Shown here piece by piece: positions 1 through 6,928 of a stretch of 6,928 nucleotides of DNA. The DNA comes from a virus (taxonomy: Duplodnaviria; Heunggongvirae; Uroviricota; Caudoviricetes), in IMG/VR virus record IMGVR_UViG_2675903352_000017, positions 1-6,928 of that record, one strand, 5' to 3'. The first letter of the stretch is position 1. Every line of letters begins with the position of its first letter. Both the position numbers and the translations under genes were made by a program. The notes below the pieces were generated by a model, which did not search any database, was not told the origin of the DNA, and saw only the letters and a list, made by a program, of their open reading frames with translations.

Positions 1-138
1 AAAGGCCCCATAAGGCGCTCGCGCTAATGACACCCGTGGAATATATTTTAAGAGAGAACAAAAATTGCAATATGTGGTGGACCCATACATCTCCTTGCCT
101 TTCGGCACGTAAGAGGCTAACCTACATGTGTCTAGCAT
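1..138 (-). CDS. Partial hypothetical protein, 5' end only; the frame runs off the window start
   Basis: ATG at 138..136 on the - strand, preceded by GAGG (150..147) with an 8-nt spacer and an in-frame upstream stop. The frame stays open for 46 codons to position 1 (MLDTCRLASYVPKGKEMYGSTTYCNFCSLLKYIPRVSLARAPYGAF...). No family recognised; too short for the ORF track. Confidence 0.2.
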   Translation of the reverse strand, partial: MLDTCRLASYVPKGKEMYGSTTYCNFCSLLKYIPRVSLARAPYGAF

Positions 139-202
139 GAAATTGGCCTCAGATTAATGTTAAGCGTCTTGCAGGACGCGTAATGTTAACTGGGGCTTTT
201 CT

Positions 203-238
203 CTATCTGCCGTTGGTGTTCATGCCCGAGGCAGATAG
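203..238. repeat. 9-bp perfect inverted repeat CTATCTGCC / GGCAGATAG separated by 18 bp
   Basis: Read directly: 203..211 CTATCTGCC and 230..238 GGCAGATAG are exact reverse complements. No U/T run follows on either strand, so it is not an intrinsic terminator; it could be a protein-binding site or an RNA stem. Confidence 0.35.
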
Positions 239-292
239 CCTCAAGCACCCACAGCCATTCTACTTAACTACCGTTACCTCGCCAATATGAAA

Positions 293-397
293 TCAGTCAG
301 AAAGGCGATCCATAAGAACAACAGCAAGGCAATAAATTGCCATTACAGCAGCAATAGCCAGCGCACATTTCAGAACCAGCACAATGACCTCCCACAT
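293..397 (-). CDS. Small hydrophobic peptide, about 29-42 aa with one predicted transmembrane helix; hypothetical
   Basis: - strand frame MWEVIVLVLKCALAIAAVMAIYCLAVVLMDRLSD, stop TGA at 295..293. Three in-frame starts are possible: TTG 421..419 (AGGAGG about 10 nt upstream), ATG 397..395 (no SD), GTG 382..380 (GGGAGG 393..388, 5-nt spacer). It overlaps the listed + strand ORF 287..481 antisense, so which strand codes is unresolved. Confidence 0.25.
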   Translation of the reverse strand: MWEVIVLVLKCALAIAAVMAIYCLAVVLMDRLSD

Positions 398-493
398 TTG
401 ACGTACACGTGCATGATTCAATATGTGGCAACCTCCTCCTTGCTTCAATGCAAAATCAAGTATTGTTGTATAACTATTTAACCAACTCCCTAT

Positions 494-537
494 CCCCGCA
501 TCTCAGGCGCCCAACTTATGTGTGCGGGGCGTTTTTT
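494..537 (+). terminator. Putative rho-independent terminator on the + strand
   Basis: GC-rich stem options CCCCGCA (494..500) / TGCGGGG (523..529), or CGCCC (508..512) / GGGCG (527..531), followed directly by T6 at 532..537. On the - strand the hairpin is followed by AUAGGGAG, not a U tract, so it is directional for + strand transcripts. Confidence 0.4.
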
Positions 538-543
538 AATACC

Positions 544-627
544 TTACCCCCAGCGGCAAATCAAATACACCACCAGCGCCACCGCCAGTGCAATACCTAC
601 TGTTGTGAATGCCTCAGGCCAGCTCAT
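544..627 (-). CDS. 27-aa predicted single-pass membrane peptide; hypothetical, last gene of a three-gene operon
   Basis: ATG at 627..625, translation MSWPEAFTTVGIALAVALVVYLICRWG, stop TAA 546..544. A strong SD AGGAGG sits inside the last two Arg codons of the upstream 115-aa gene, 7 nt before the ATG. Hydrophobic core with a basic C-terminus. Below the ORF-track size cutoff. Confidence 0.45.
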   Translation of the reverse strand: MSWPEAFTTVGIALAVALVVYLICRWG

Positions 628-631
628 TGAT

Positions 632-979
632 TCACCTCCTTCGTGGTTCTGGTAGCGGCATCCAGTCGGTTACATTGCGGCTCTGTGTTTCAAAAAATTC
701 ATTACCATTGCGGACAATATCGAAAAACTCACCGTCTCGATATTGCGCATGAAGAACGAATGCGCCATCACATAAAATAATTACGTGCTGACCATCACCT
801 AGCATTCGCTCACTACAGCTTATCCAACCGCCCGAAGTTACCGGAGAGTTGCCAGTCTTACGCATGGCAATCTCCACGATTTCAACCATATCTCCTGGTG
901 GAATTTTACAGTGCTGACCCAAATGCCTCTGCTGCCTGGCATACTCAAGGATGTGCTCCAGTTTGATTCGATTAATCAT
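632..979 (-). CDS. Hypothetical protein, 115 aa, second gene of the coupled operon
   Basis: Complete ORF from the track. Its ATG (979..977) overlaps the TGA stop of the upstream 135-aa gene as ATGA; GGAG lies 7 nt upstream. No family recognised from the sequence (MINRIKLEHILEYARQQRHLGQ...). Confidence 0.7.
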   Translation of the reverse strand: MINRIKLEHILEYARQQRHLGQHCKIPPGDMVEIVEIAMRKTGNSPVTSGGWISCSERMLGDGQHVIILCDGAFVLHAQYRDGEFFDIVRNGNEFFETQSRNVTDWMPLPEPRRR

Positions 980-1383
980 GATTTATCTCCCTTAAGCATG
1001 GCTGCACGACAGGCCTCTTTGAGCACCCAGTCAACCGCGTCTTTCCATGCTCCGGTTTCGACTGGCGGATTTTCACGCTTAACCTGTTCATAGAAACGCA
1101 CTGCTTTAATCAATCCTTCTGGTGTCAGTGACACAGGTGTAGCGGTGAATAGAGGTTTAGGTGTTATCTCTGCACGTTTTGCGTATGCATCAACTGTGTC
1201 AGGATTAAACAGGATTATGTTTTCGCCGTATTCCCACGCTATCGGCTCTGCTTCCAGCGATGCCAGAGCAATTTTGAATAACTCACCCTCTACTCGTGCC
1301 ACCCCTGAATTGGGGTGGCATTTCGCAATCGCTATTTTTAATTTAGCTTCTTCGATTAATTGCTCTTTTGTTAATTCAGTCAT
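976..1383 (-). CDS. Hypothetical protein, 135 aa, first gene of the coupled operon
   Basis: Complete ORF from the track (MTELTKEQLIEEAKLKIAIAKCHPNSG...). It follows a 158-bp AT-rich intergenic region and is same-strand coupled to the 115-aa gene. No family recognised. Confidence 0.7.
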   Translation of the reverse strand: MTELTKEQLIEEAKLKIAIAKCHPNSGVARVEGELFKIALASLEAEPIAWEYGENIILFNPDTVDAYAKRAEITPKPLFTATPVSLTPEGLIKAVRFYEQVKRENPPVETGAWKDAVDWVLKEACRAAMLKGDKS

Positions 1384-1392
1384 TTTTCATTA

Positions 1393-1408
1393 CCGCCCTT
1401 TCGGGCGG
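1393..1408 (-). other. GC-rich hairpin with a GAAA (GNRA) tetraloop in the 5' leader of the 135-aa gene
   Basis: - strand RNA reads AGGAGG-CCGCCC-GAAA-GGGCGG-UAAUGAAAAAUGACU. A 6-bp GC stem (1393..1398 / 1403..1408) lies between an AGGAGG motif (1420..1415) and the start codon at 1383. A 4-codon mini-ORF (ATG AAA AAT GAC TGA, from 1390) overlaps the real start. No U tract follows, so it is not a classic terminator. Confidence 0.3.
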
Positions 1409-1541
1409 CCTCCTGATGTTTTGAGGGTGCAGGAATCCCTCCTGTTAAGGATTAAATTTTATTTACAGTGCTGAGATTAATTATTCAGATTTGAATTATG
1501 TTTTCTCTTTCACTTCACGCAGTCCTGATTGTTAATTTGGC

Positions 1542-1958
1542 TCACAGTACCACCTCCTGCAAACTTCCCTTCCAGAAAGCCAGCACGCGCTGCATAGTTT
1601 CGCTCTGACGGCACTCTCGGCAAATTATGTTCTGTCTCCTGTTGTAACGGCGTATCTCGCTATCTGGCAATGAATAAACCAGGTCGGGGTCGTTCTTCTT
1701 TTTCACTGCCGCTCTCGACATTTTTTTGCAGGCTTTTATCCAGTCCTTACGAGCCTGTTCTGAAGGAAATATTCCATGGCCTGAACCATATAGCGTGCCA
1801 CTAACTACCAGCTCTTTCGCCAGAACTTCTATCAGGTGTCTCGTTGCTCCGGTTTCATCCTCCAGTTGCTTACGTGTTTTCCTCCCATCTCTGCGCACCA
1901 GTTCCACAATACGCGCCTTCAGTTGCTCCCGATATTCAGGTGTAAAAACGTTTCTCAT
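1542..1958 (-). CDS. Hypothetical protein, 138 aa from the ATG at 1958; the longest ORF begins at 2015 (157 aa)
   Basis: Track ORF 1542..2015. The internal ATG at 1958..1956 is preceded by GGTGAGG with a 5-nt spacer and avoids a 50-nt overlap with the upstream gene, so it is the preferred start. Product MRNVFTPEYREQLKARIVELVRRDGRKTRKQLEDETG...; basic, no family recognised. Confidence 0.6.
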   Translation of the reverse strand: MRNVFTPEYREQLKARIVELVRRDGRKTRKQLEDETGATRHLIEVLAKELVVSGTLYGSGHGIFPSEQARKDWIKACKKMSRAAVKKKNDPDLVYSLPDSEIRRYNRRQNIICRECRQSETMQRVLAFWKGSLQEVVL

Positions 1959-1965
1959 AAGTGCC

Positions 1966-2727
1966 TCACCTTTCCGACACAACGCGACTGGAGGAATCGA
2001 CAATCTGTCGGACAATATCCCGGTGTTTATTCAGCTCCCGCAGCGCGGCGCAGACGCGCTCCCACTTCTGGACATGATTTTTCGCCCGGCGCAGTTCGCG
2101 GTTTGCCAAATGCAGCGATGGTAAAATCAGGTCATCCGCCCGCGTTTCGGTGAACGATGGCAGCGACTGCACAATGTCCGCCACAGTTTCTGTTTTAATT
2201 TCTTCCTGTGTTACAGTTTCCTGTGCTGGTAACGCAACACCTGCTGGCTGAGGAAAGGCTTTACCATCTGTTTCCGTTACCAATGCGGCTTTCGGCTCTG
2301 CTGGTAAATTATCGTCCGGCATGCAGTAACGAAATTTACCGTTCTGATTTACGCGAATCAGGCGACCTTTGCTGATTGCCTGAGCCAACGTTGAAGCCAC
2401 TTTGCGTGATGTGATACCGAACAGCGTAGCCAGCTCATCAGCCGTTTGTGGTCCGCGTTGTTCAATCGTCGCCGTTAAATCGCACTCTGAGATTTTCGCT
2501 ACTGTTGCCGTGGTAGTTTCTTCATGAAATTCAGCCCGGGATGCTTGTTCCTGCTGAGCATTGCTACCAGCCACACGCCAGGTGTACGCGGTTTTATCAA
2601 CGAAACCAGATTTTTTCAGTTCCCACAGCTCATTCAGTACCTCTTCACGACTGATATCAAGTCGCGCAGCAAGTTCTATGGATGTGGCCTTTCCCATCGC
2701 TTTCAGTGCGTCAAAAACAGTCTCCAT
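1966..2727 (-). CDS. Hypothetical DNA-binding protein, 253 aa from the ATG at 2727; the longest ORF begins at 2778 (270 aa)
   Basis: Track ORF 1966..2778. The internal ATG 2727..2725 is preceded by GGAGG (2740..2736) with an 8-nt spacer and removes the 29-nt overlap with the DnaC-like gene. The N-terminus ([43 protein letters not shown]) and a second segment ([32 protein letters not shown]) look like winged-helix/HTH motifs; that reading is inference. Confidence 0.65.
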
Positions 2728-2749
2728 TAAAATTTCCTCCCGGTAAAAA

Positions 2750-3496
2750 TCACTTCGTGATTCCTGGCTGGACGACATTCGGGCGCCAGCTTTCCCAGTT
2801 AAAAGTCACCCAGCGCCCGCCGTTCATGGTCATGCGATCCATAATCCTCTCGCCGAGCAACGTTTTCATGGCCTCATAGTTCAGGTTTGTCAGCATCCCC
2901 ATACTGCGCATCGATGCTGTCCGGCGATCAACAATCTGATGCAGCACCACCTGCTCGTTTTTCGTCTCACGCTGAATGCCAATTTCATCAAGAACCAGCA
3001 GATCCACTTCGCACAGTTCCCGCAAAAATTTTTCGCCTGACTGCCCGTCGTCATAGCTGGCGTGCAGGGCACTCATAACATCAGCCACAGTAACCACTAT
3101 CACTGTCTGGCCGTCTTTCAGCAGGCGATTCCCGATAGCCGCCGCCAGATGGTTTTTTCCGGTACCAGGTTTTCCGCTGAACGCGAAATTTGTGCATCCG
3201 GTCATCAGTTCATCAGCGATGGATTTCGCCTGACTTAACGCGTATCGCTGGCCGTCGTTCTGTACATGGTAATTCGCAAACGAGCATTTACGGTGCAACG
3301 GCTGGATGCCTGAGCGATTCAGAATTTTTTCCACCCGCAACTGGCGATTCAGGCGGTTGATCTCCTCGCTACGCTTCTGGCCTTCAGCAAGTTGCCACTC
3401 GCGCCACTCCGCTACCGTTCTGAATGGGGCGGTTACATGTGGCGGGGTCAGTCTGCGGATACGTTCCAGAACGCCGCCTGTCGCAATATTTTTCAT
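2750..3496 (-). CDS. ydaV: DnaC-family replicative helicase loader (AAA+ ATPase)
   Basis: 248 aa. Walker [18 protein letters not shown], Walker [10 protein letters not shown], and C-terminal [21 protein letters not shown]...[10 protein letters not shown] align along the full length with E. coli DnaC as I recall it. It follows the initiator gene after a 6-nt gap. The symbol is given from family plus synteny with Rac (ydaU-ydaV). Confidence 0.92.
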
Positions 3497-3502
3497 GGTT
3501 CG

Positions 3503-4465
3503 TTACCCCCTGAACCCCGGAGGAATTTCGGTGTCCGGTTCAGAAATATGATTCACACAACGCTGTACAGGTGAACGCCCCAGGCGGATGACCAGTTCGT
3601 CCCATTTTTCGCGGAGCTTTGACGGGCTCATGATGTTTTTTACCCAGAATGGATCCCGCTGTACCCGCCCAAACATTTCGCAAATTTGTCTGTGAGTTCT
3701 GCCATCCAGCATCCGCATTGTGCGCACGTCATTGGCCCACGCGGTCCAGTTTGGTTCTTTCGGTCGCGTGATCTCGCCATCATCGCTGGCCGCCTGCTCG
3801 TAAAGACTCACGATTCGTCCCCAGATCCACTGTGCGCACGCCAAATCTTCCTGACTTCCCCACTGGCGTTTTTTCGCACTGAACACAACCGCATCAGGGT
3901 GTCGGGTTAAAAAATCCTGTTCAGCCGTCTGCGGGTCCGGTTGCGAAGCGTCCGGACAAGAAGATCTTTTATCTGATGGATCAGATTTTAATACTGACGG
4001 ATCGGGGTCAATCATCGCCCCCCTAACCGACCGTTTTTTATCAACGGTTGATCCATCAAAATTTGACGGGTCAACCGTTGAGGGGTCAATATTTGACGGG
4101 TCAACCGTTAACGGGTCATTTTTTGCCGGGCTAATTTTTCTTTTCGGTTTATATGCCTCTCGCGCCGCCGCTGCTGCAGCTTCGAGTTTTTCCACATTAA
4201 GCCGGTAGATATTGCTTACGTTACGTCCGCCAACCTTACGCTCTTCCTTTGTCAGCCAGCCGCTTTTTTCCAGTTCCGCTATCGCCGCTTTAACCGTTGA
4301 TTCACTCTTTGCCCCAATCTGACGACGAATGGTCTCTACTGCAGGCCATGACACACCTTCATCATTGCTGTAGTCTGCAAGACGAGCCATCACTGCCACC
4401 CTGGATAAGATCATGCCGGTGAAGGCACACCCTTCCCAGACAAGACCATGAAGCTTGCTGCTCAT
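3503..4465 (-). CDS. Phage replication initiator (O-like origin-binding protein; YdaU-like by position)
   Basis: 320 aa. N-terminal winged-helix pattern typical of phage/plasmid replication initiators (ILSRVAVMARLADYSNDEGVSWPAVETIRRQIGAKSESTVKAAIAELEKSGWL). Central repetitive linker PLTVDPSNIDPSTVDPSNFDGSTVD is encoded by the iteron DNA. Sits immediately upstream of the DnaC-like loader. Confidence 0.8.
   Translation of the reverse strand: MSSKLHGLVWEGCAFTGMILSRVAVMARLADYSNDEGVSWPAVETIRRQIGAKSESTVKAAIAELEKSGWLTKEERKVGGRNVSNIYRLNVEKLEAAAAAAREAYKPKRKISPAKNDPLTVDPSNIDPSTVDPSNFDGSTVDKKRSVRGAMIDPDPSVLKSDPSDKRSSCPDASQPDPQTAEQDFLTRHPDAVVFSAKKRQWGSQEDLACAQWIWGRIVSLYEQAASDDGEITRPKEPNWTAWANDVRTMRMLDGRTHRQICEMFGRVQRDPFWVKNIMSPSKLREKWDELVIRLGRSPVQRCVNHISEPDTEIPPGFRG
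3995..4155. repeat. Putative origin of replication: iteron cluster and adjacent AT-rich tract inside the initiator gene
   Basis: Perfect 19-bp direct repeat ATTTGACGGGTCAACCGTT at 4061..4079 and 4091..4109. Related partial copies: TGACGGATCGGGGTCA 3995..4010, TCAACGGTTGA 4041..4051 (inverted relative to 4071..4081), GGGGTCAAT 4082..4090, ACGGGTCA 4111..4118. An AT-rich stretch follows at 4118..4155, and several GATC sites sit at 3979..4052. Same logic as lambda ori lying inside gene O. Confidence 0.6.
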
Positions 4466-4488
4466 AAAAAACCCCGAACACCGTGCTT

Positions 4489-4914
4489 TTAGTGCATCAC
4501 CACGGCATTTCCTGCCGGGCCACCGCGATTAATCTGGTTGAAACCAGCAATTGCCACCGCAATAAAATCATCTGCATCCCTCACCAGCCGCTCCCGCGTC
4601 TCCAGCAGCTCCCGAAAATAGGCTGAACTGTGACTGCGCATTCGGGCCACCAGCAGAGGCGGCATTGCCTTTTCGATCGCAGGTAACAACGCCTGAATTT
4701 TTTTAACCGCATCAGGGGTGTCTTTCTCCACCCAGCGGAAAATTTTCTGAGTATTGCGAGCCAGGGCTTCAGGATGGCTGTCGTCATATAATTCCGGGAA
4801 CGTCATACCCAGCTCAAAATAAGCTCGGGTTATTTCAGCCGCCGGAACTTTTTCGCCATCAGGACGCGCCCAGGCATTCATCGCCATGCGGATGTGTTCA
4901 TGCTTGATTTTCAT
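4489..4914 (-). CDS. ydaT: YdaT-like protein (proposed CII-like regulator / toxic product of the Rac early-right operon)
   Basis: 141 aa, immediately downstream of the Cro-like gene and upstream of the initiator, matching the size and position of Rac ydaT (about 140 aa). Assigned by synteny and size; I cannot verify the sequence match from memory. Confidence 0.6.
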   Translation of the reverse strand: MKIKHEHIRMAMNAWARPDGEKVPAAEITRAYFELGMTFPELYDDSHPEALARNTQKIFRWVEKDTPDAVKKIQALLPAIEKAMPPLLVARMRSHSSAYFRELLETRERLVRDADDFIAVAIAGFNQINRGGPAGNAVVMH

Positions 4915-4936
4915 GAATCATTTGCCTCTTGATGTT

Positions 4937-5233
4937 TCAGGTATGATCAAATGAGGATTTGTTACTGTCATTTAGTTGCTTCACTGACATATTCTGCGAA
5001 TAACATGCCGAACGTCGTAAATATGACCAGTCAATATCAGGACGAAGTTCTTCGCACAGAACGTCACCTCTTGTTGCACGTTCAATTGCTGGACATCTCT
5101 CTGCAGGCAATTGACGTACCCCTTTGATCCATTGATTTACGCTTGGAGGTGATACACCTAAAAGCCTAGCCATTGCTGATTGCCCACCGACAACAGCACA
5201 AGCTCGCTTGAATGAATAGTTCTCTTTTTTCAT
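4937..5233 (-). CDS. ydaS: Cro/YdaS-family HTH DNA-binding protein, first gene of the early-right operon
   Basis: 98 aa; MKKENYSFKRACAVVGGQSAMARLLGVSPPSVNQWIKGVRQLP... matches my recollection of E. coli K-12 Rac YdaS nearly residue for residue. HTH motif present. GGAG sits 8 nt before the ATG. Divergent from the repressor gene across the operator region. Confidence 0.8.
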   Translation of the reverse strand: MKKENYSFKRACAVVGGQSAMARLLGVSPPSVNQWIKGVRQLPAERCPAIERATRGDVLCEELRPDIDWSYLRRSACYSQNMSVKQLNDSNKSSFDHT

Positions 5234-5259
5234 CGAATGAACTCCAAAAACACACAGAG

Positions 5260-5289
5260 ATATTAGGCGACGCCTAATGCTAATGTCAA
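5260..5289 (-). promoter_or_regulatory. pR-like sigma70 promoter for the ydaS-ydaT-replication operon
   Basis: - strand -35 TTGACA (5289..5284), 18-bp spacer, -10 TAATAT (5265..5260). The -10 and spacer overlap operator O1. The predicted transcript start is about 20 nt upstream of the ydaS SD. Confidence 0.5.
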
Positions 5290-5329
5290 TAGGCTATGCC
5301 TAATGCAGTAAGAATAGGGATTGCCTAAT
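5262..5329. promoter_or_regulatory. OR-like tripartite operator: three 17-bp palindromic sites, consensus ATTAGGC-N3-GCCTAAT
   Basis: O1 5262..5278 ATTAGGCgacGCCTAAT (perfect inverted repeat); O2 5288..5304 AATAGGCtatGCCTAAT; O3 5313..5329 AATAGGGattGCCTAAT. Centres are 26 and 25 bp apart. The sites lie between the divergent repressor and Cro-like genes. Confidence 0.6.
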
Positions 5330-5334
5330 ACAAT
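5329..5334 (+). promoter_or_regulatory. Possible -10 element of a pRM-like repressor promoter (weak or absent -35)
   Basis: TACAAT at 5329..5334 on the + strand, about 7 nt before the racR SD AGGAG (5341..5345), with no good -35 hexamer 17 bp upstream. Resembles an activator-dependent pRM-type promoter next to O3. Speculative. Confidence 0.25.
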
Positions 5335-5356
5335 GAGCATAGGAGAATATTAAGCA

Positions 5357-5833
5357 ATGCTTAGTGGTAAAGACTTAGGCCGAGCAATAGAGCAGGCCAT
5401 TAACAAAAAAATCGCATCGGGATCCGTCAAATCAAAGGCGGAGGTCGCTCGCCACTTCAAAGTCCAACCACCATCAATCTATGACTGGATTAAGAAAGGC
5501 TCCATAAGTAAAGATAAACTTCCAGAATTATGGCGTTTCTTTTCTGATGTTGTTGGTCCAGAGCATTGGGGGCTTAACGAATACCCCATACCAACCCCCA
5601 CCAACTCAGATACAAAAAGTGAACTTTTAGACATAAACAACCTTTATCAGGCAGCCTCTGATGAAATAAGAGCGATTGTAGCTTTCCTGTTATCAGGAAA
5701 TGCTACAGAACCAGACTGGGTTGACCACGATGTTCGCGCCTACATAGCAGCGATGGAAATGAAAGTTGGTAAGTATCTGAAAGTTCTAGAATCTGAACGG
5801 AAAAGCCAGAACATCACAAAAACTGGAACTTAA
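5357..5833 (+). CDS. racR: Prophage repressor, RacR-type (cI functional analogue, HTH)
   Basis: 158 aa; MLSGKDLGRAIEQAINKKIASGSVKSKAEVARHFKVQPPSIYDWIKKG... matches my recollection of E. coli K-12 RacR in sequence and length. HTH near the N-terminus. Flanked on both sides by arrays of the same operator palindrome. Confidence 0.85.
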   Translation: MLSGKDLGRAIEQAINKKIASGSVKSKAEVARHFKVQPPSIYDWIKKGSISKDKLPELWRFFSDVVGPEHWGLNEYPIPTPTNSDTKSELLDINNLYQAASDEIRAIVAFLLSGNATEPDWVDHDVRAYIAAMEMKVGKYLKVLESERKSQNITKTGT

Positions 5834-5846
5834 ACTTATATGGTCT

Positions 5847-5876
5847 GACGGAAAACTCCTGGATTCCGTTATTTAA
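5847..5876 (+). terminator. Weak candidate terminator or stem-loop downstream of racR
   Basis: GACGGAA (5847..5853) pairs with TTCCGT (5864..5869) around a 10-nt loop, followed by TATTTAAT. Stem is short and the U tract imperfect. Confidence 0.2.
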
Positions 5877-5928
5877 TCCCTCCCATCACTTTTTTCATTC
5901 GCATCACCTATTGGGTTACGCCCAGAAC

Positions 5929-5972
5929 ATTAGGCAAAGCCTATTGACAATCAATTAGGCATTACCTATAGT
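5929..5972 (+). promoter_or_regulatory. pL-like sigma70 promoter with two overlapping operator sites (OL-like)
   Basis: -35 TTGACA 5944..5949, exact 17-bp spacer, -10 TATAGT 5967..5972. Operators O4 5929..5945 (ATTAGGCaaaGCCTATT) and O5 5954..5970 (ATTAGGCattACCTATA) are 25 bp centre-to-centre and overlap the -35 and -10. Confidence 0.6.
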
Positions 5973-6071
5973 TCCAGCATGCCACCCACCCCGCCCCACA
6001 GCACGCAGGGCAATACTTCGAGTTACCAGGCAGTGGTCAGGGGTTAAGTAGCCAGCCCGAGGCGTAAGAAC

Positions 6072-6302
6072 ATGACGGCAGGGTTCAACTTTAACTATGC
6101 AGCAGGTTTTTGTTCCGCTACCCCGGCGTTAAGGGGAAATGAGGTCAGCATGGATACTATCGATCTTGGCAACAACGAATCTCTGGTGTACGGCGTGTTT
6201 CCCAACCAGGACGGCACGTTCACCGCGATGACGTATACCAAAAGTAAAACGTTTAAAACCGAAGCTGGCGCGCATCGCTGGTTAGCAAGAAACTCTGACT
6301 GA
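6072..6302 (+). CDS. Small hypothetical protein, first ORF of the early-left operon (76 aa, or 50 aa from the internal ATG at 6150)
   Basis: Track ORF. ATG 6072 has GAGG 9-10 nt upstream; the internal ATG at 6150 has GAGG 6141..6144 with a 5-nt spacer (MDTIDLGNNESLVYGVFPNQDGTFTAMTYTKSKTFKTEAGAHRWLARNSD). Rac carries small ORFs (ydaG/ydaF) in this position, but I cannot confirm the sequence identity. Confidence 0.5.
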   Translation: MTAGFNFNYAAGFCSATPALRGNEVSMDTIDLGNNESLVYGVFPNQDGTFTAMTYTKSKTFKTEAGAHRWLARNSD

Positions 6303-6313
6303 TGAGGTTGACG

Positions 6314-6928
6314 ATGGAATTTAAAGATTTACCTACTTCAATCCAGGAGATTGCAGCACACACACTTCGTCATCGTCTGAACGAACTTGCATTGGAATCG
6401 GTAACGAAAAAAGACACTGATAATATGGCTCGTAATGTGCGCGATGCGTTTACCGGATTGTATTTCTGTGCGTCTGTAAATAAACACGACTCAGAGAGTG
6501 TGGCAAATAAAATTGCAGAAACGACAGCGCAAAACATCAATACGAAACCAACGGAAGAAGAAATTGATCAGTTTGCTCATGATGCTGGTTTAAAAAACAA
6601 GAAAGAAAAATCGCCATATGCGGGGAACATGTTTGTTTATGACAATCTCATCAGAATTCGTGGCGAAATTCCGGCGGAATACCTGGCAAGAGTCCATCAG
6701 GCATTGCTTAAAAATCTGGAAACAGAATTATTTGATGGCAACACTAACGGTTTCTTCATGGTATCAGGCCTTGAGAAAGACTGGGATGCAGAAAAACGCT
6801 GGAATGTTGCTACATGGTTATTCAGTAACAGAGCCGCTGCTCTGGAAGCTTCGGCATGTATTTGCGGCCTGTTCTTAACAGACCACAAATATAATCTGGA
6901 TGTGTACAGTTATATTTACGCTGGTTAA
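6314..6928 (+). CDS. Hypothetical protein, 204 aa from the ATG at 6314 (208 aa from the ATG at 6302, which overlaps the upstream stop as TGATG)
   Basis: Complete ORF ending with TAA at the window edge. GAGG 6304..6307 lies 6 nt before the ATG at 6314. Product MEFKDLPTSIQEIAAHTLRHRLNELALESV... is hydrophilic, with no transmembrane segment and no motif I recognise. It sits in the early-left operon driven by the pL-like promoter. Confidence 0.7.
   Translation: MEFKDLPTSIQEIAAHTLRHRLNELALESVTKKDTDNMARNVRDAFTGLYFCASVNKHDSESVANKIAETTAQNINTKPTEEEIDQFAHDAGLKNKKEKSPYAGNMFVYDNLIRIRGEIPAEYLARVHQALLKNLETELFDGNTNGFFMVSGLEKDWDAEKRWNVATWLFSNRAAALEASACICGLFLTDHKYNLDVYSYIYAG

Follow-up and report, generated by a model that had tools for sequence, protein, structure and literature searches.

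A putative iteron-type replication origin inside the O-like initiator gene of a Rac-immunity-type lambdoid prophage

The DNA analysed here, called the window in the following, is a stretch of 6,928 nucleotides (positions 1 to 6,928 of the IMG/VR record IMGVR_UViG_2675903352_000017, a virus of the Caudoviricetes) and covers the immunity genes and the replication genes of a lambdoid prophage of the Rac-immunity type. An earlier note on this DNA had proposed that replication origin iterons are embedded in the initiator gene at positions 3995-4155. Our analysis suggests that an array of short palindromic sites at positions 4048-4134, along with related sites at 3973-4011, represents the iterons for the N-terminal domain of the protein encoded by the same gene and that, combined with the adjacent DNA at 3958-3997, these sites probably form the replication origin of the prophage. 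We estimate the probability of this reading to be about 0.75. The interpretation of the earlier note, iterons embedded in the initiator gene, is supported at the computational level.

The strongest repeat of the whole window is located inside the initiator open reading frame (ORF). The perfect 19-mer ATTTGACGGGTCAACCGTT is present there twice, 30 bp from start to start (Table 1), as the earlier note had stated, and a third copy with 3 mismatches lies in inverted orientation at 4043-4061; none of 200 dinucleotide shuffles produced any match. The repeat search shows overlapping inverted repeats and five copies spaced 15 bp apart, and a formal search using Tandem Repeats Finder bears out the periodicity, with a period of 15/30 at 4041-4130 and scores up to 108. 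With a tolerance of up to 3 mismatches, a scan of the window for the 12-mer core TTGACGGGTCAA reveals six phased positions (4048, 4063, 4078, 4093, 4108 and 4123), all of which are TTGACSSGTCAA-like palindromes inside the initiator ORF. These six positions and the inverted 19-mer copy correspond to the at least four degenerate or inverted relatives that had been described. In the whole window the core has 15 matches at this threshold, against 6.0 ± 2.7 expected, and the motif does not cluster elsewhere in the window. On the coding strand, inverted half-sites alternate strictly in the order TTGAC-2 bp-GTCAA-3 bp-TTGAC, the near-palindrome being TTGAC-NN-GTCAA. The array is translated as ...NDPLTVDPSNIDPSTVDPSNFDGSTVDKK... 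(longer reading ...DPLTVDPSNIDPSTVDPSNFDGSTVD...), and the ORF translation agrees with the earlier description of a repetitive linker encoded by the repeats. As in lambdoid origins, at least four related dyad-symmetric sites are located inside the initiator ORF between the regions encoding the N- and C-terminal domains. The proposed start coordinate of 3995 cuts through two further related sites, at 3973-3984 and 3994-4011.

The protein encoded by this ORF matches positions 1-298 of 298 of the PHROG 391 profile ('replication initiation O-like') with its residues 1-320 (2e-115). Pfam HTH_36 (PF13730) is present at residues 25-71, and the AlphaFold2 model of the N-terminal domain consists of helices and a beta-hairpin wing, with a predicted local distance difference test (pLDDT) score of 71-88. 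Foldseek with the whole model returned PadR, MarR, DnaD N-domain and TubR matches, all of which are weak (E 0.03-0.2) because the disordered linker was included in the query model; the result supports a winged-helix fold and nothing beyond it. Residues 109-173 are predicted to be disordered (pLDDT about 30) and are followed by a confidently predicted helical C-terminal domain at residues 178-297. In BLASTP, residues 182-293 are 39% identical to residues 171-270 of lambda O over 112 aa (E 3e-25) and the C-terminal domain is 36% identical to that of phi80 gp15 (E 3e-26). No BLASTP similarity to lambda O or phi80 gp15 was found for the N-terminal half, and Phage_rep_O (PF04492), which both lambda O and phi80 gp15 match, was not detected in the initiator. 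Remote homology of the N-terminal domains is nevertheless possible, because O-like proteins have been assigned an HTH_36-like fold by HHpred (Brezellec et al. 2017, PMC5509034).

Location of the array agrees with that of the mapped lambdoid origins. The lambda iterons (annotated at 39034-39118) correspond to codons 117-145 of O and the phi80 gp15 sites to about codons 122-147, while the array in the window occupies codons 116-140. In all three genes the repeats are followed by an AT-rich stretch which ends in an alignable segment, AAAAGATCTTC in the window, encoding KRSS. With ori-lambda the window shares dyad-symmetric repeats within the ORF between the N- and C-terminal domains at the same codon interval, a downstream tract that is AT-rich, if only modestly so in the window, a homologous C-terminal domain, a place in the early-right operon after cro-like and cII-like genes, and a loader gene next to the initiator. 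However, the N-terminal domain is Phage_rep_O in lambda and HTH_36 in the window, and the site sequences are unrelated. Lambda contains four sites of 18-19 bp at 20-24 bp spacing, whereas the window contains five to six sites in 15-bp phase and in both orientations. The loader also differs, being P in lambda and of the DnaC/IstB type, not of the lambda P type, in the window, where the initiator carries an additional DnaT-like C-terminal tail. The origin in gene 15 of phi80, with four annotated gp15-binding sites (JX871397, 36663-36739), has the same architecture, the 36% identical C-terminal domain and the alignable DNA after the AT-rich stretch, but possesses a Phage_rep_O N-terminal domain, TTCCCGAAAACGGGAA-type iterons at 21-bp spacing and a partner of the lambda P type. 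Hence the lambda parallel drawn in the earlier note holds for the C-terminal domain, the codon position and the constraint at the DNA level (see below), but not for the N-terminal domain.

Six-iteron origins in O have been reported for the Shiga toxin (Stx) phages 933W and P27, with binding shown by electrophoretic mobility shift assay and footprinting (Kozlowska et al. 2020, PMC7466680). In these phages too the number of iterons inside O varies and alters the length of the linker, comparable to the 320-305 aa alleles in the family of the window; their O proteins and iterons are however of the lambda type. Iteron plasmid origins (pSC101, R6K, P1 oriR) likewise combine tandem repeats, a winged-helix protein encoded in cis and an adjacent AT-rich region, but in the window the sites are located inside coding sequence.

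Comparison with further lambdoid phages shows that the N-terminal domain and the repeats are exchanged as a unit. The C-terminal domain in HannyBb and mEp460 is 90% identical to that of the window, but only up to about window position 3970, and upstream of this joint HannyBb encodes a third, unrelated N-terminal domain and has its own 23-bp repeat in 3.7 copies. Four cassettes of N-terminal domain and repeat (lambda, phi80, HannyBb and the window) are thus each joined to a homologous C-terminal domain. The N-terminal domain and the repeats therefore travel as one cassette, and the joint with the common C-terminal domain falls just beyond the array and the AT-rich region. In lambdoid phages, such co-exchange is the classical mark of origin recognition that is type-specific. 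In HannyBb (locus L089), a Ren-like gene comes after the O-like gene at 2501-3466 and a loader gene is absent, making it an 'O-only' module. Phi80 gp15 was rejected as a member of the family of the window, only the C-terminal domain being common; a Pantoea homologue bears the source name 'Replication protein 15' on account of this gp15-like C-terminal domain. P22 gene 18 was likewise rejected as a member; P22 is absent among the tblastn matches listed (60 of 68).

An origin of this kind is expected to include DNA that is easily unwound. Nearest-neighbour stability identifies 3958-3997 as the least stable 30-40-mer of the gene. With respect to transcription, this tract lies beyond the array, about 50 bp from the last phased unit, and holds two related sites itself. 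The AT-rich tract which the earlier note described as following the array exists at 4110-4159, but with a GC fraction of 0.375-0.40 and a nearest-neighbour z of about 1.5-1.8 it is only moderate, and DNA of weaker stability lies on the other side of the array. Its 4115-4154 portion is absent from Citrobacter phage phiNP, and in the other relatives that were inspected for it, namely L007 and the clade-B loci, no AT-rich DNA precedes the array. The tract at 3958-3997 therefore appears to be the likelier unwinding tract. The sequence GATCTTTTATCTG (3963-3975) was considered as an oriC-like 13-mer and dropped, given that its GATC is not maintained in relatives such as L017. For the DnaA box TTWTNCACA the window has a single match (TTTTCCACA, 4188-4196) against 0.72 expected, which lies at a distance of about 55 bp from the array and lacks a conserved counterpart in phiNP, and the window contains no integration host factor (IHF) consensus. 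With the DnaA box at chance level and the IHF consensus missing, a DnaA-dependent iteron plasmid origin was rejected.

It is possible that the sites are bound, by the initiator or a different protein, for another purpose, such as autoregulation, a roadblock to transcription or translation of the initiator and loader genes, or copy-number 'handcuffing', and that replication starts elsewhere, for example at 1333-1505, where the least stable DNA of the window is located. Plasmid iterons serve control as well as initiation. However, the 12-mer core scan finds no copy of the motif near 1333-1505, and no cluster is present anywhere else in the window. Moreover, codon for codon, the array sits between the N- and C-terminal domains where the origins of lambda and phi80 have been mapped, and the AT-rich tract and the KRSS-encoding DNA align with their counterparts in these phages. 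We therefore regard a purely regulatory role of the sites as unlikely.

Relatives of the initiator indicate what kind of constraint acts on the array. A homology search with the N-terminal domain only gave mostly truncated proteins, and genome loci and a full-length search were used instead. The resulting set comprises 80 loci from one-genome-per-species contigs with N-terminal domains of 53-77% identity, providing 78 distinct full-length ORFs from Enterobacterales; four close relatives, the alleles of E. coli O104:H4, O157:H7 and STEC17-183 and that of phiNP, were compared in addition. All 78 ORFs carry, immediately behind the N-terminal domain at about codons 95-140, a tract with 15-bp periodicity and about 3-8 units. 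For the core TGAYNNNTCA the density is 14.6 per kb in codons 96-180 and 0.29 per kb in the remaining 389 kb of the loci (50-fold); the core is always in one codon frame, and 15 bp is by far the dominant spacing. Codon usage in the linker is skewed in the direction that the motif requires. Serine is encoded by TCA in 51% and by TCT in 31% of cases (82% together) compared with 17% and 12% elsewhere (29%), lysine by AAA in 93% compared with 61%, and the share of TCA is higher in the linker than elsewhere in 77 of the 78 ORFs. In the clade of the window, both GACCCCTCA (Asp-Pro-Ser, DPS) and its exact reverse complement in frame, GAGGGGTCA (Glu-Gly-Ser, EGS), occur, eight times each. A peptide repeat would not flip in this way while a palindromic protein-binding site would, which argues that the DNA site is selected.

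Divergence at third codon positions points in the same direction. In codons 101-180 it amounts to 0.05, 0.06, 0.125 and 0.32 for O104:H4, O157:H7, STEC17-183 and phiNP, respectively, and in the flanking N- and C-terminal domains to 0.23, 0.23, 0.40 and 0.62, so that the linker value is 3-5 times below that of the folded domains (Fisher p 2e-4 to 2e-6). Because this low divergence falls in the linker predicted to be disordered, conservation is highest where the protein is least constrained. The comparison of iteron copy number with linker length, proposed in the earlier note, shows that alleles differ by whole 15- or 30-bp units: those of 320, 315, 310 and 305 aa are related by deletion of one, two or three units of 5 aa (15 bp) inside the array. 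In a further class of alleles 7 aa (21 bp) are missing, a length equal to the distance between the two outlying sites, so that exactly one outlying unit is removed. Taken together, these sequence comparisons support selection on the DNA and not on the peptide in the array region. They also suggest dual coding, in which the site array in the linker codons fixes the peptide, one orientation being read as DPS and the opposite one as EGS or DGS. Three N-terminal domain clades (A, B and C) exist in the HTH_36 family with the different cores GACCCNTCA, GACGCATCA and CAGAATCTG, a small number of independent contrasts. The third clade (MSSKLLGHVWEACA..., loci L070, L076 and L082) contains the palindrome CCAGAATCTGG, read as PESG; here the 15-bp phasing is kept and the site is changed.

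GATC (Dam) sites are located beside and inside the array at 3963, 3979, 4000 and 4050, i.e. four within 90 bp. In the family (L007-L086), GATC is 2.7-fold enriched in the linker part of the gene (10.9 per kb, 4.0 elsewhere). This enrichment may be related to methylation or SeqA control of the origin, or it may be a mere consequence of the site variant GATCC(G/A)TCA.

The fact that the linker is of low complexity and predicted to be disordered, and that the number of units varies among alleles as expected for slippage, might lead to the assumption that the repeats are a by-product of a pentapeptide linker, (DPSxx)n, that is prone to slippage and is either neutral or under selection as protein, with no DNA function in cis. 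However, such an origin of the repeats predicts neither the strong codon skew nor the reduced third-position divergence, nor does it predict exact reverse-complement units coding for different peptides, DPS and EGS. In addition, the palindromic cores are held at 15-bp phase in 78 relatives while the peptides drift (SDASK, DPSNI, PESGG), which makes this explanation very improbable. Least credible of all is that the repeats are internal promoters or a structured mRNA element: TTGAC matches five of the six positions of the sigma-70 -35 consensus and is found on either strand, but a promoter scan reveals no -35/-10 pair in 3900-4250, no Rfam family matches at the array, and the two orientations with strict 15-bp phasing fit protein-binding arrays rather than promoters.

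How the origin might work can be outlined by analogy with lambda O and ori-lambda, from which we infer binding, unwinding and loading at the array. Derepression would allow transcription from a pR-like promoter through the cro-like, YdaT/cII-like, initiator and loader genes, reading through the iteron array. Initiator dimers, which may span either the 2-bp or the 3-bp spacer, would then occupy the packed sites with their winged-helix domains to form a nucleoprotein complex, and this complex would destabilise the neighbouring AT-rich tract, probably aided by the transcription from pR. The lambda-O-like C-terminal domain, possibly together with the DnaT-like tail, would recruit the host DnaB via the phage DnaC-like loader.

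Several observations weigh against the array being such an origin. Its 15-bp spacing is about 1.4 helical turns and its half-site centres are 7-8 bp apart, while lambda and phi80 have a spacing of 20-24 bp. The proposed unwinding tract is only modestly AT-rich, with a GC fraction of 0.28 over 40 bp against about 0.23 in lambda, and the least stable DNA of the window (1333-1505, GC about 0.20) is in and around the gap between the ORFs 976-1383 and 1542-2015. The literature searched turned up no experiments that demonstrate binding, unwinding or initiation in this HTH_36-type initiator family, and the prophage is possibly defective. Mosaic recombination and homogenisation of the repeats via slippage may exaggerate both the codon skew and the low synonymous divergence; these processes could add to some of the signals, but they do not account for the whole set.

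The C-terminal tail of the initiator deserves separate mention. It is predicted to be disordered by AlphaFold2, and phmmer matches it to DnaT chains in the PDB (2ru8, 6aep and 9zbt) at an E-value of about 1e-3. Judged from this resemblance, it may be a handle for the host DnaB-DnaC. The arrangement of a DnaT-like tail followed by a dnaC-like gene mirrors the host dnaT-dnaC operon. Relatives with tails ending in W..(V/T)L have a lambda-P-like gene downstream, and for those with ..GFRG tails neither a DnaC-like nor a lambda-P-like gene is present downstream in 18 of 19 cases. The C-terminal motif of DnaT, O-like proteins and HTH_36 have been discussed together for the domesticated DopC, for which that study found no iterons (Brezellec et al. 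2017, PMC5509034).

A bolder and rather doubtful possibility is that the HTH_36-type O-like initiators follow a distinct origin design, in which the alternating half-sites nucleate a continuous filament instead of a lambda-type O-some on well-separated iterons and the DnaT-like tail (..SEPDxxIPPGFRG) recruits the host DnaB-DnaC directly. In this design the sites would be placed in frame such that both orientations give a linker peptide the protein can accept. Given the 15-bp phase and the 7-8-bp separation of half-sites, which are unlike lambda, such a filament may sit on alternating faces of the helix. Filament-forming winged-helix or ribbon-helix-helix proteins on tightly packed repeats are known from TubR/tubC and ParR/parC, which the array of the window recalls. 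If true, direct recruitment of DnaB-DnaC by the tail would explain the replication of 'O-only' lambdoid modules having no loader gene, which a 2025 survey reported as not understood (PMC12315714).

Table 1. Features of the initiator gene, the putative origin and the surrounding region (window coordinates)
Feature	Position	Strand	Basis or remark
RacR-like repressor gene	5357-5833	+	divergent from the minus-strand operon
pR-like sigma-70 promoter	5260-5289	-	TTGACA-18-TAATAT, 10/12 matches (promoter scan)
YdaS/Cro-like gene	4937-5233	-	first in operon order
YdaT-family (cII/YdaT-like) gene	4489-4914	-	second in operon order
Initiator ORF, 320 aa, O-like	3503-4465	-	ORF list, PHROG 391, Pfam HTH_36
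N-terminal winged-helix DNA-binding domain	4154-4465	-	codons 1-104; AlphaFold2, Pfam HTH_36
AT-richer tract of the earlier note	4115-4154		upstream of the array in gene direction; GC 0.375-0.40; z about 1.5
Sixth unit, degenerate, in phase, TTGCCGGGCTAA	4123-4134		3 mismatches; 12-mer core scan
Putative core iteron array, five 12-bp near-palindromes in exact 15-bp phase	4048-4119		codons 116-140
19-mer copy 1	4061-4079	+	exact
19-mer copy 2	4091-4109	+	exact
Outlying related sites CTGACGGATCGG and GATCGGGGTCAA, encoding DPDPS	3994-4011		conserved in relatives
Outlying related palindrome CTGATGGATCAG, encoding DPS	3973-3984		conserved across the family; block GAT CCA TCA GAT AAA in relatives
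Proposed unwinding element, AT-rich	3958-3997		GC 0.28; free-energy (dG) z 2.5, rank 43 of 6889; GATC at 3963 and 3979
C-terminal domain, lambda O / phi80 gp15 homologue	3587-3922	-	aa 182-293; BLASTP; pLDDT 74-97
C-terminal tail VQRCVNHISEPDTEIPPGFRG	3506-3568	-	last 21 residues; resembles the last 21 of E. coli DnaT
DnaC/IstB-like helicase loader gene	2750-3496	-	directly downstream of the initiator; Pfam IstB_IS21 2e-19; PHROG 50 2e-83

The genes around the initiator are arranged as a lambdoid early-right operon (Table 1). PHROG 50, matched by the loader gene, carries the label 'DnaC-like helicase loader', and the operon continues after this gene with DUF1627, DUF977 and DUF551 proteins. 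A 22-nt inverted repeat, TGTCAATAGGCTATGCCTAATG, with arms at 5284-5305 and 5928-5949 that are 95% complementary, flanks the RacR-like repressor gene, and one of its arms overlaps the -35 TTGACA of the pR-like promoter. The arms probably represent both operator/promoter regions of the immunity module. Near the left end of the window, a full-length match to the sok antitoxin RNA (Rfam RF01794, 110 bits) is located on the minus strand at 84-250, implying a putative hok/sok-type toxin-antitoxin locus; hokD is annotated near the corresponding place in the near-identical JP538 prophage. The Rac prophage of K-12 (L001, NC_000913, 1417000-1425000) has the same RacR, YdaS, YdaT and YdaV neighbours, but the gene at the position of the initiator, ydaU, is DUF1376, suggesting that the initiator cassette has been swapped within otherwise similar modules. 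The literature on oriJ of K-12 Rac was accordingly not applied to the window, YdaU being a DUF1376 protein and thus a different initiator.

The presence of an origin inside the O gene is a textbook concept. The putative origin of the window adds a member with its own site type and spacing to a class that is well known, namely origins lying within the initiator genes of lambdoid phages. In the literature searched, neither iterons nor an origin are described for HTH_36-type O-like initiators, and this type of site is not described there either. Among the replication modules of Stx phages classified by gene content, Eru8 and Eru11 contain YdaT-like and HTH_36 proteins (Fagerlund et al. 2022, PMC8951638). 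They resemble the window, by kind of gene alone, in a cI-type repressor, a YdaT-family protein and an HTH_36 protein; that work describes no origin or iterons (PMC8951638), and papers on the non-lambdoid Stx replication regions ('Eru', with YdaT and HTH_36 modules) mention neither.

The replication module is present in 1520 of 5426 complete E. coli genomes (about 28%), including the prophages of O157:H7 and O104:H4. It has been reported that prophage replication governs induction and, in Stx phages, the output of toxin (PMC7466680). Our analysis offers a concrete, testable origin for this module, which extends to relatives across the Enterobacterales. It would also represent a clean natural case of dual coding, in which an array of binding sites dictates the sequence of a disordered protein linker, DPS or EGS depending on the orientation of the site.

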